DNA of 64,000 nt from Mustelus asterias (lineage: Eukaryota). The stretch spans positions 121,396,001 through 121,460,000 of the forward strand of contig NC_135803.1 of NCBI RefSeq assembly GCF_964213995.1, given 5' to 3'. The notes beneath the pieces are model-generated. The model made no database searches, was not told the origin of the DNA, and saw nothing but the letters and a program-made list of their open reading frames with translations. The translations under genes were made by a program, and so were the position numbers. Below, one piece after another: positions 221-8,484 of the stretch; position 1 is the first letter of the stretch; the number at the start of each line of letters is the position of its first letter.

Positions 221-461
221 AAAAGAGAAAATGCAGGAAAATCTCAGCAGGTCTGGCAGCATCTGTAAGATAAAGAGCTGACATTTCGAGTCCAGATGAC
301 CCTTTGACAAAGCTGTGAGCTGTGAGCTTTGACAAAGGGTCATTTGGACTTGAAACGTCAGCTCTTTTCTCTCCTCACAGATGCTGCCAGACCTGCTGAG
401 ATTTTCCAGCATTTTCTCTTTTGGTTTCAGATTCCAGCATCCGCAGTAATTTGCTTTTATT
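221..461. mobile_element. Palindromic non-autonomous Penelope-like (PLE) terminal-repeat element
   Basis: Inverted arms ~220-314 and ~325-423. Flanked by direct repeats ATATTTAGTAATC (208-220) / ATATTTAGTGATC (462-474). The arm sequence (CAGCAGGTCTGGCAGCAT...) recurs next to a PLE RT fragment at 32905-33835. Confidence 0.8.
324..364 (+). ncRNA. Minimal type I hammerhead ribozyme motif (U3-A8 core variant)
   Basis: Stem I GAGCT/AGCTC, core TTGACAA (329-335), stem II GGGTC/GACTT, GAAA (352-355), palindromic ACGT stem III, GUC cleavage triplet. Confidence 0.65.
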
Positions 462-1179: not shown

Positions 1180-1496
1180 GGGTGGCACAGTGGTACAGTA
1201 GTTAGCACTGCTGCCTCACAGCGCCAGCAGTTGGGTTCAATTCCGGCCTCGGGTCACTGTCTGCGTAGAGTTTGCACGTTCTCCCTGCACATGCGTGGGT
1301 TTCCTCCGTGTGCTCAGGTTTCCTCCCACACTCCAAAGATGTGTGAGTTAGGTTGATTGGCCATGCTAAATTTCCTTAGTGTCAGGGGGATTAGCGGGAT
1401 AAGTACATTAGCGGGTTATGGGGATAGGGCCTGGATGGAATTGTTGTCGATGCAGGTTTGATGAGCCCAATGGCCTTCCATCTGCACTGTAGGGAT
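1180..1496 (+). mobile_element. HE1 (V-SINE) tRNA-derived SINE, CR1-type tail
   Basis: tRNA-like head (GGTGGCACAGTGG...GGTTCAATTCC), V-domain GAGTTTGCACGTTCTCCC...GGTTTCCTCCCAC, tail CTGCACTGTAGGGAT. Confidence 0.9.
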
Positions 1497-1550
1497 CTTG
1501 TCTCATCAACATGAATGATTTATGCCCTTTTTGCAAAAGTAATTGATGAA

Positions 1551-3084: not shown

Positions 3085-3345
3085 ATTGGCAAGTCATGTT
3101 GCAGCTTTATACAACTTTAGTTAGGCCGCACTTGGAATGTAGTGTTCAATTCTGGTCGCCACACTACCAGAAGGATGTGGAAGCTTTGGAGAGGCTACAG
3201 AAAAGATTTACCAGGATGTTGCCTGGTGTGGAGGGGAGGTTAGAGAAACTTGGTTTGTTCTCACTGGAGTGACGGAGATTGAGGGGGTGACCTGATCGAA
3301 GTCTACAAGATTATGAGTGTCATGGACAGAGTGGATAGTCAGAAA
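3085..3345 (+). mobile_element. CR1 LINE ORF2 fragment
   Basis: TTAGTTAGGCCGCACTTGGAATGTAGTGTTCAATTCTGG (LVRPHLE.SVQFW-like). Breaks abruptly at the Harbinger-derived sequence. Confidence 0.85.
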
Positions 3346-3725
3346 CCTGGATCCACATCTGTGTAGTGGGTAAGGGATCTGAAACCTCCATACATGGCCC
3401 TGGGATGGATGGGGTGGGGACGGGAGGGGATGGATGGGGTGGGGACGGGAGGGAATGGCTTGTGTGTTCTGGGGAACCAATGCCTTCCTTTTCTCAGTGA
3501 CACAGCATTGAGGGGCCTCCCCAACTGACATCAACATGAAGCATCGTTCCGGCGATCATCAATGGAAGAGGATTCATAATCGAAACAAATTAGTCACAGG
3601 TGGGTGGTGAAAAAATATTTAATTACAATAAAGCTGTTTAAATAAAAAGTTCTAACACAAAAACTTGTGAACAAAAAATGTTTCTAACTAGTGCAGCCCT
3701 TCACCTGTGCCACCTCAGTGCAACT

Positions 3726-5990
3726 ACAACCTCCTAACCTTACATGGCCTACCGCTATGTCTCAGTGACTCCCCAGAATGTACATCGGAGGTGGAGGGGG
3801 CCAGCTGCCTACCTCACCCCATTGCCTGTGATGTGTGTGGTGGGCGTCCTCTGAAGGCCCTGAACCTTGAGGGCCCTGGCCTGCTTCCAGTTGTCTGGGA
3901 TGTTTCTATGACACCTTCTTCATCCCGCTGCCCCTGAGATGCCCCGGTGTCAGGAAAGGGGGAGTTAGAAGTTATAGCCATAGCCACAGCCACAGTCTCC
4001 TGGCTGGATGGGCTCGAGCCCTTCCTTCTCCCTTGGAGTTCCTGTGGGCCCCTGGGTCACTCCATGGGACAGCAGTGCTTCTGCAGTGAGCTCCAGAAGC
4101 TCCGGCATCACCTGGCACTGCCAGTCCTGGAGGACCACCTGCATCCTACCCATGGTGGTCGAGCCCTCTGCGATGACCACTTGAGTCGGGGGCCACCTCT
4201 CAAAGGACACAGCAAGTGCCCTCTGAGACTGGGCCATGCTCTGCAACTCCTCAACCATGACCTTCTGTGACGAGGCCATGTTCTCAAGGGCTGCTGCCGT
4301 AGCCCGCTGTGTCTCAGCGCTGTCCTGCTGGGTCTCCTGCAAGCTCTCGAGCCTCTCAGCCATGGGCCGCAGGATCTCGAGAAGCCTGTTCAGTCCCTCA
4401 GCTGTAGCCTGCTGTGACTCAGCCATCGCTTGGAGCCTGCCACTCATGGTGAGGATCCCCTGCCCCAGGCTTTCCACTGCAGACTCCACCCTTGCAGTGT
4501 TGGCCTGGGAAGCATGCAAGACAGATCAGCCTGAAAGCTTTGGGACTCCTCCCAACAGCCTCGCAGTTGGTCCAGTGTGGCCGTCAGCCCCTCCTGCATT
4601 CCCTGGCCCTGTTGCTGCATCTCCAGCAGCTGAGGGAGAAGTGATCTCAGAGGCCCAGGATGTAGCCTGGGGCCAGCTGAGTCCTCGCCTCCGGCAGGCC
4701 CCCGCATGCCAGAGGTATTGGACATTCCCTCCTCCAACCGATGTACATTATCAGATGTGTTGTGCTCACCAGAGAGTGACCCAGAAGCCTCACCACTAAC
4801 TGGATCCACCGACATGTCAGTATCTGGGATGGTGAGTTGTGAGGTGGCAGCTGACGCCAAAACGGTGCCATCCTCAGAGGTCCCTTCACTCACATCCTCC
4901 GAGGACTCGTCCGAGCTATCTGGACCAGGATGGGCAGGAGCTGCAGTACGGGCCTGGAGTCCAGAAGGCCCCGGGGCGTCCGGATCTGTCCCTGCAACAC
5001 AGGACACAAGGTTAAGTGCAAGGGAGGGAGAGGAATTCGGGATGCAAAACATGTGATTCACATTTCTCCATTGAACATAGAACAAAGCAACAAGAAAATT
5101 ACATCACAGGAACAAGCCTTTGGCCTTCCAAGCGGGTAGTGACCAGGCTGCCCACCTGATTTGTAACCCCCTACCCTTCCGGGACCATATGCCTCTATTC
5201 CAATCCCATTCACAGAGCTGTAAAGACGCCCCTTTAAAGGTCACTTTCGTATTTGCAAGCACGACCTCCCCTGGCAGCGAGTTCCAGGCACCCACTACCC
5301 TCTCTGTGCAAATAAACATGCCTCATACATCTCCTTTAAACCTTGCCCCTCACATCCGAATCGCGTGTCCACGAGAAGTTGCCTCAAAGTGAGTGGAGTA
5401 ATGACAGGTGCTCACATCTTGACGGCAGCCCGACCATGCTGTCACTGACAGGCCGCATCTCCCCTTCTCTTGAGAACTCCAGCACCCGCTCCTCAAAGGG
5501 GGCGAGGACCCAGAGGTCTGGTTCACCATCCCCTGTCTTCGCCCCCTCCATGGGTGTTATGGTCGGTCTTCTCCTGTGGAGACAGAAGGAGCCATGAAAG
5601 AAATGGTGATGTGACTCCTGCAGAATATCAGGTGGTGGCCCTTCAAAGACAAGCACAGTGGGGGCCTTGGGGGGGGATAGGAAGGAGCTGCTTGGGGGTC
5701 AGGAGCTGGAAGCACGCAGGGTGTTGGGGATGGGAGGATCTGGGGGAGATTTGGAGGAAGATGCAAGATGGGGGTCAGCCCTCACCCTTGCTGCATGGAT
5801 GAGGTCATTAACTCTTTTCCGGCACTGCTTCCCGCTTCGGGGGGCCAGTGCCCTGGCACTGACCGAGGCGGCGACTTCCTCCCAGGCCACATTCCCATCA
5901 GCTCCCCTGGGTCTGCGTCCTCCTCTGCTGCATCCAGCAGCCTCCCCAGGTCGCCCTCAGAGAATCGGGGGGCTGGTCGTGCACACATTT
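3726..5990 (-). pseudogene. Three-exon Harbinger Myb/SANT-like DNA-binding protein gene, frameshifted
   Basis: Exon 1 PAPRFSEGDLGRLLDA / AWEEVAASVSARALAPRSGKQCRKRVNDL ends at a GTGAG donor (exon end 5786). Exon 2 starts at 5573 after CCACAG (KTGDGEPDLWVLAPFEERVL). Exon 3 starts at 4991 after TTGCAG and encodes an acidic/Ser region, a heptad-rich region and the basic C-terminus LRHSGRPCKVRRL*. Confidence 0.75.
5075..5350 (-). mobile_element. CR1 LINE 3' fragment inside the Myb gene intron
   Basis: TERVVGAWNSLPGEVV motif and CR1-like 3' tail. Confidence 0.8.
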
Positions 5991-7947: not shown

Positions 7948-7984
7948 TCACCTGATGAAGGAGCAGCGCTCTGAAAGCTTGTGG
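7948..7984 (+). ncRNA. Minimal type I hammerhead ribozyme motif in pseudo-LTR
   Basis: Stem I TCAC/GTGG, core CTGATGA (7952-7958), stem II GGAGC/GCTCT, GAAA (7973-7976), palindromic AGCT stem III, CUU triplet. Confidence 0.75.
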
Positions 7985-8484
7985 CTTGTGCTACCAAATA
8001 AACCTTATGGACTTTAACCTGGTGTTGTGAAACGTCTTACTCTGCTTACCCCAGTCCAACGCCGGCATCTCCACATCAGAACAAAGATAAGCAGAGTGTC
8101 AAAGGACAAACTGAAACAGATGTACCTAGTGGGCGGGGTGTGGGGAGGGGAGATGGTGGTAAGGGTAAAAGGTGGAGGATAAAAATATGGGACGGGAAAA
8201 TGAATCAATGGAAGAAATAAAAATAAATTGATGGAAATTTAAAAAATACGATGAAAGTGGAGGAGTGAGTTCATGCTCTAACATTATTGAACTAAATGTA
8301 CAGGCTGTAATTGGAGGATTAGTTGATGTTCCTCCAGTTTGTTTTGGGCATTTCCAGCAGTTTCTGTTTTGTTTCAGATTCCAGCATCTACAGTAATTTG
8401 CTTTTATCTTAGGGTTGCCAACTCTGGCTGGACATATTCTGGGAGATGTCATCACATGACGTCTGACCTGTAGCTGTCCCTTTG

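Follow-up and report, generated by a model that had tools for sequence, protein, structure and literature searches.

The window, i.e., the whole stretch of 64,000 nucleotides that we analyzed, carries at positions 222–461 a non-coding element of two inverted arms with a target-site duplication (TSD). This had been predicted originally, and both the reading of the sequence and a repeat search confirmed it. A head-to-head inverted repeat spans 217–426 around a 10-nt spacer and is followed by a 3′ extension to 461; the arms are complementary at 94% (217–269 with 374–426) and 91% (272–314 with 325–367). The TSD copies lie on the plus strand at 208–221 and 462–475 (repeat family D12) and are identical at 13 of 14 positions. 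The last five bases of the left copy also resemble element sequence, possibly as microhomology. We number the element from window position 325 as +1. The direct arm (325–461, plus strand) comprises the last 137 bp of the pLTR (+1 to +137), and we conclude that it is the pLTR end of a Neptune/Nematis-type Penelope-like retroelement (PLE). It starts at the 5′ end preferred by its family, and no TATA box at −30 is present in the window copy. The optional 30–40 bp PLE tail, a known feature of these elements (PMC8557442, PMC3846280, as far as these sources were available), is found only on the direct arm (425–461, plus strand); 3′ ends cluster at +100–104 and +134–138. The inverted arm (222–314, minus strand) corresponds to +1 to about +99, lacks the tail and has a small internal deletion. 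The junction spacer between the arms (315–324, plus strand) consists of short repeats of the AGCT end and is unique, with one genome match at up to one mismatch.

The direct arm contains a minimal type I hammerhead motif without helix III (325–363, plus strand), as assigned from its sequence, its predicted fold and the consensus in Fig. S3 of PMC4209133; the anatomy expected for this arm was hence borne out. On the plus strand, helix I is formed by AGCU at 325–328 and 360–363, with a fifth pair (G324) supplied by the junction spacer. The core UUGACAAA (329–336) has U3 at 329 and A8 at 334, which is the state throughout the subfamily, and an extra base between positions 9 and 10.1, typical of PLE motifs. 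It is followed by a 5-bp helix II (337–341/347–351), the GAAA (352–355), the palindromic ACGU (355–358) and C17 (359), directly after which cleavage is predicted. Its stems had been called intact, but C11.1 has decayed to U (351), and the conserved G10.1–C11.1 pair is now G–U. The left arm carries a damaged minimal hammerhead (276–314, minus strand) that, as noted before, keeps U3 and A8 and has additional lesions, i.e., A6>U at 307 and C15.2>U at 283. The right arm and the subfamily majority fit the core of PLE minimal hammerheads (U4 G5 A6, A9, G12 A13 A14, A15.1–U16.1, H17 and a Watson–Crick 3–8 pair), whereas A6>U takes the left arm outside it. The subfamily also has helices I and II, the G10.1–C11.1 pair and the palindromic 15.2–16.2 without helix III; the window copy has G10.1–U11.1 and, with its motifs on opposite strands, no second same-strand motif for a dimer. 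A read-through RNA of the whole element is predicted to fold as one hairpin (−158.6 kcal/mol) that buries both motifs. Cleavage by this copy is very improbable, and the copy is predicted to be inert. As a separate observation, the U3–A8 core is an 11-nt quasi-palindrome (window 303–313; also L206, L215, L216 and L272). Template switching at this site is suggested by the A6/U6 flip and several fold-back junctions, which coincide with it.

Rfam returned only chance miRNA-hairpin matches below the gathering score and no hammerhead, both for the window and for five other loci (two U3–A8, three C3–G8). Since C3–G8 sister copies are missed too, the Rfam miss is not due to U3–A8. The expectation that standard searches would overlook the variant is right for a strict CUGANGA pattern, with which surveys undercount PLE motifs in this genome by more than half, and wrong for Rfam insofar as C3–G8 copies escape it as well.

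We counted the states of positions 3 and 8 with an exact 25-nt core pattern over the 3.68-Gb assembly, leaving positions 3, 7 and 8 free. The pattern matched exactly 12571 times genome-wide, compared with 0 for the reversed control. A fixed U3–A8 subfamily (6665 matches) stands beside C3–G8 (3856), as the check proposed with the original prediction had anticipated; C3–A8 was found 1361 times, U3–G8 265 times, a purine at position 3 198 times and the remaining state classes 226 times. The odds ratio for the association of positions 3 and 8 was 71, which reflects two master lineages and not independent covariation. What had been described as a naturally covarying variant is thus a fixed subfamily, and its covariation is one evolutionary event, not thousands. 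All 30 fetched close copies of the right arm carried U3 and A8, in a sample biased to the query. A minimal-hammerhead descriptor gave 117 matches over 658 kb, with 1 of 15 among the matches listed outside both hammerhead families (see below for the second).

From their sequence backgrounds, the mixed forms look like products of mutation and CpG decay. C3–A8 stood on the C3–G8 background in 91 of 100 among the matches listed, and 41 of 100 listed C3–G8 matches had the mirror CpG change; the U background accounted for about 40 of 100 U3–G8 and 9 of 100 C3–A8 among the matches listed. Single reversions on the U background amounted to about 1.6–1.9%, as estimated from the matches listed, compared with a background transition rate of 2.3–2.9%. 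A G3 subfamily, suggested by 4 of 100 among the matches listed, was rejected, with purine-3 copies numbering 198 in total and occurring on both backgrounds. Likewise, an intermediate U3–G8 subfamily was not found; such copies occur at the reversion rate and on both sides of an 11-bp indel (six long copies).

The two subfamilies also differ in loop II, H17, position 1.1 and downstream sites. In arms picked by their 3′ anchor alone (67 of 100 in register for U, 42 of 73 for C), non-CpG divergence was 4.1% for the U subfamily vs. 6.4% for the C subfamily and CpG decay 12–16% vs. 20–26%, by which the U3–A8 subfamily appears to be the younger one. C at position 3 was found in 5 of the 67 U arms, above background, some of them being junction letters. 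A second hammerhead family, unrelated to the first and encountered incidentally in flanking sequence, was C3–G8 in 33 of 34 grouped matches. As the U subfamily is younger and this second family C3–G8, U3–A8 is most likely the derived state. The second family has a helix II of the GGAGC/GCUCC type, a GC palindrome and a helix I that covaries among subgroups; one of its C3–G8 minimal hammerheads, with one decayed base, lies in the window at 7948–7990 (plus strand).

The proposed PLE origin is supported by longer U3–A8 copies, which extend upstream into the endonuclease (EN) C-terminus and the reverse transcriptase (RT), with the GIY-YIG domain C-terminal. Pfam matched three of five family frames, all broken and all below the gathering cut-offs (GIY-YIG, E 6.7e-4 and 1.5e-3; RVT_1, E 0.007). 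In locus L142, a CxxC lies between the counterparts of GIY and YIG, with two His further downstream, i.e., the CCHH motif as defined for EN+ PLEs in PMC8557442, and a CX2-5CxxC zinc-finger linker is present between RT and EN. The part of PMC8557442 that was available assigns this cysteine linker to Neptune and Nematis and describes it as absent from Penelope/Poseidon. Judging by these motifs, the parent should be an EN+ PLE of the Neptune or Nematis type.

We chose 39 loci by RT similarity to a U3–A8 copy. The sense motif behind EN was callable in 31, with U3–A8 in 28, U3–G8 in two and C3–A8 in one. A direct 5′ pLTR was found in five loci; in L432 and L439 both direct-pLTR motifs could be called, 3250 and 3266 bp apart, and L432 has an inverted pLTR as well. 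The parent hence had the two same-strand motifs that a dimer needs. Among 428 arms, no common main body was found to follow the tail; one appeared only with the RT-selected loci. None of the latter had a complete ORF, the longest frame being 732 aa. More than half of 150 scored copies (e.g., L112–L141) have a common EN frame break, also carried by the query, suggesting a defective sub-lineage amplified in trans. With no complete ORF and this common break, part of the spread may stem from defective parents that needed no ribozyme. Several features were noted in passing. In L408 (G000:C6:126.325 Mb), a pyrimidine tract ending CAG right before an ATG lies about 30–35 nt behind the 5′-pLTR tail, possibly a 5′-UTR intron acceptor as in Drosophila Penelope. 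Short +1 to +100 copies lie within or directly behind same-family RT/EN sequence in L411, L419, L423 and L441, and in L142 a 596-aa RT+EN frame of another PLE family (3220–5007, minus strand; RVT_1, E 2.2e-10) adjoins the U3–A8 element.

We explain the window element as a terminal pLTR fragment of a PLE subfamily fixed for U3–A8, likely derived from an uncleaved RNA in trans and left as a presumably inert copy of a probably active parent; to this explanation as a whole we assign a probability of about 80%, and we are very confident of the identity and origin of the fold-back. In the parent, two pLTR motifs would pair via ACGU and cut after C17, and C3>U and G8>A may have been kept because together they restore the 3–8 pair. 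Natural U3–A8 hammerheads are reported to be active in vitro (PMC3088659, section 8), whereas for PLE minimal hammerheads low activity is reported, also in dimeric form (PMC4209133). The predicted dimer fold is less stable than an alternative pairing by 2.8 kcal/mol for the U3–A8 motif of L278 and by 3.3 kcal/mol for its C3–G8 sister L041. All six fixed subfamily differences in the 39-nt motif keep the fold. Two of them lie in loop II and two make up the 3/8 pair, the others being H17 U>C and G1.1>A; in a rough simulation, carried out post hoc, P was about 0.001 for the six and 0.02–0.04 for the 3/8 pair alone. On this sequence evidence the parent U3–A8 motif probably cleaved, and it likely worked as a weak dimeric hammerhead.

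Alternatively, the U3–A8 motif could be catalytically dead or irrelevant, two transitions having drifted to fixation in one master that spread without self-cleavage. The double change at 3 and 8 was a single event, G8>A is a CpG-type change, and the double change perfects a local quasi-palindrome (CUUUG-A-CAAAG), which offers another cause for it. Moreover, just 2 of 100 arms begin at the cleavage site, many copies have the common EN frame break, and Naiad and most Chlamys PLEs spread without hammerheads according to the accessible part of PMC8557442. Against this, the fold is kept by each of the four remaining fixed differences in the motif, none of which falls in the nine invariant core bases. 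CpGs at C11.1–G12 and in ACGU decay in 9–22% of U copies yet remain the majority state in both subfamilies, an argument that is weakened by the tail CpG, which is kept too. Together with the in vitro activity of U3–A8 in other hammerheads, these points make a dead motif a somewhat unlikely alternative to an active parent. A high copy number does not in itself show that a ribozyme works. The unswapped C3–G8 sister branch in the same genome provides a natural comparison for a clean 3–8 swap that can be counted genome-wide.

The 5′ ends of the copies were analyzed in 100 U arms that lie in the first 15 Mb of C1. Of these, 30 started exactly at +1 and 54 within −5 to +5; no start fell between −54 and −5, 13 arms started further upstream than −54, and 87 had no upstream region. 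Compared with a flat expectation, the peak at +1 has a binomial P of 7e-39. At +36, the expected start of the cleavage product, which shares AGCT with +1, only two arms began. In the C subfamily, 29 of 73 arms start within −5 to +5, and TATAAA starts at −30 in the reference copies of both subfamilies. The copies thus appear to preserve a sharply defined RNA 5′ end at helix I and hardly any at the cleavage site. We infer that transcription starts at +1, driven by the TATA box, and that the RNA was reverse-transcribed in its uncleaved form: with 30 of 100 ends at +1 and only 2 at the cleavage site, the short copies likely stem from uncleaved RNA, which would have been reverse-transcribed in trans. 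In contigs from four runs and four organisms, the most frequent loose end among the matches listed was at the same base, which shows the boundary in related DNA and says nothing on RNA. An untemplated G from cap copying was not supported, as G precedes +1 in only 5 of 30 copies. In the literature, mainly open access, neither a fixed start at helix I nor a U3–A8 PLE family in a shark-like genome was found to be described.

The +1 boundary could instead be a splice acceptor (pyrimidine tract plus AG/CU) or a microhomology hot spot. Both subfamilies do have a pyrimidine tract ending YAG at helix I, the end of the intron in Drosophila virilis coincides with the 5′ terminus of helix I (PMC4209133), the AGCT sequence is a palindrome, and inverted junctions are frequent among those at +1. 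On the other hand, inspection by eye shows no upstream exon sequence common to the +1 copies, the starts peak at +1 (30 arms) and not at +3 (6 arms), and non-inverted solo copies also start at +1. TATAAA, moreover, stands at −30 in both subfamilies though the 24-nt spacer is identical at only 9 of 24 positions in the two reference copies. We therefore regard this reading as improbable and retain the transcription start at +1.

From there, a broader model, although a somewhat unlikely one, can be drawn from the sequences. Transcription would start on the first base of helix I, and the cut at C17 would clip off a 35-nt capped leader, turning message into template. Uncleaved RNAs would spill over into thousands of promoterless SINE-like copies, and the U3–A8 swap would be a selected, active retuning in a vertebrate lineage. 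If such a cap-clipping switch were true, the C3–G8/U3–A8 sister pair would offer a natural way of asking whether PLE hammerheads play a part in transposition. In any case, sister subfamilies and 5′ ends make it testable with natural sequences whether and when the motifs cut.

We examined arm pairing in 90 U-subfamily loci and the window, which yielded 57 head-to-head pairs, three loci being counted twice. One arm started within −5 to +7 in 48 of the 57 pairs, and 50 consisted of one tailed and one untailed arm. TSDs of at least 8 bp were found for 41 of 57 inverted pairs compared with 9 of 488 mismatched flank pairs; in the fold-back family their length is 10–20 bp. The commonest junction, a perfect palindrome on AGCT, occurred in 5 of 57 pairs. 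Same-strand motif neighbors within 600 bp were present at 2 of 91 loci, none of them an array. Over all loci, 120 of the 121 pairs that could be clearly assigned had both arms from the same subfamily, and 22 further pairs were unclear or mixed; L211 is a fold-back with arms from different subfamilies. This pattern could also be explained by different periods of subfamily activity or by later conversion. Paired arms shared 15 rare variants in the U subfamily (shuffle mean 4.6, maximum 12.6) and 32 in the C subfamily (shuffle mean 19.0), and the caution that the two arms are not independent evidence is vindicated by this excess over shuffles. The window arms have no rare variant in common, and their damage hence postdates insertion.

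We conclude that the fold-back very probably arises in the course of insertion and is not propagated as a unit. The two strands of a staggered cut may each have primed synthesis, at +100 or +137, and copying would have run back to +1, where the self-complementary AGCT end would favor fold-back joining. Both arms would be copied from one template, the inverted second arm likely being made in the same insertion. That the two arms come as a rule from the two RNAs of a hammerhead dimer was not supported, given one clear hybrid in 121 pairs, seven mixed-arm pairs and the excess variant sharing.

The claim that the 240-bp fold-back is a retrozyme-like non-autonomous unit spreading through its two ribozymes could draw on the majority of short copies (87 of 100 arms without upstream region), the frequent inverted arms (51 of 100) and the TSDs, but it is very improbable and for the window copy already refuted, barring assembly-collapsed copies with the same junction, as the window junction is unique and junctions are heterogeneous, the arms, being on opposite strands, cannot give a double hammerhead within a single RNA and by prediction anneal to each other, tandem arrays and a TATA box are absent, and the variant sits on RT+EN-bearing 3.25-kb elements. 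Neither head-to-tail tandem hammerhead units nor intact spread of the unit, as in retrozymes, was found. Retrozymes are tandem repeats (PMC7229834, PMC6765202, bioRxiv 10.64898/2026.07.22.740005); the last of these, a preprint by Li et al., sampled one chondrichthyan, according to the part available. The element resembles the non-LTR retrozymes of Cervera and De la Peña (2020, PMC7229834) in being non-coding and PLE-pLTR-derived with a type I hammerhead. Theirs, in the sections at hand, are head-to-tail tandems with circular RNAs and a canonical motif, whereas here a minimal motif stands in single, head-to-head copies.

Both U3–A8 in PLE hammerheads and the inverted-pLTR/tail/TSD structure have already been published. 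In the available part of PMC4209133, Cervera and De la Peña (2014) report U3–A8 in the Cercyon PLE minimal hammerheads of Schistosoma mansoni, with about 1300 matches, and describe dual motifs on opposite strands; their chordate examples are C3–G8. Shared with Cercyon are a type I minimal hammerhead in the pLTR, the U3–A8 core with an extra base after A9, G10.1–C11.1, the palindromic 15.2–16.2, and mostly single truncated copies with close opposite-strand pairs. In contrast to Cercyon, the host here is vertebrate-like, the parent is of Neptune/Nematis type, helix II is shorter (5 bp), and the swap can be dated as an independent and more recent event from a close C3–G8 sister subfamily that the genome also contains. 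The chordate rows examined in Fig. S3 of PMC4209133 were all C3–G8 and included no cartilaginous fish.

Inverted pLTRs, tail, TSD, junction palindromes and pLTR promoters are described in PMC3846280, PMC8557442 and PMC2377424, as far as these were accessible. Like EN+ PLE inserts (Arkhipova 2013, PMC3846280; Craig 2021, PMC8557442), the copies here have head-to-head inverted, 5′-truncated pLTRs, a 30–40 bp tail on one arm, a junction palindrome and a TATA/Inr-like pLTR motif. Unlike those, most copies here are pLTR-only and end at the first base of helix I, and TSDs measure 10–20 bp instead of 8–10 bp; a fixed boundary of this kind was not found in the accessible text of the two papers. The window locus is likely an inert scrap of a very abundant PLE, i.e., a new example of a known phenomenon that changes little.

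Two further repeats were noted in the window. A 28-nt inverted repeat (834–861 and 1089–1116, 82%; I3) encloses about 230 bp with inner repeats and is possibly a MITE. At about 1180–1500 (plus strand) lies a tRNA-derived SINE, which we take to be HE1-like of cartilaginous fish; similar repeats flank many of the fetched loci.
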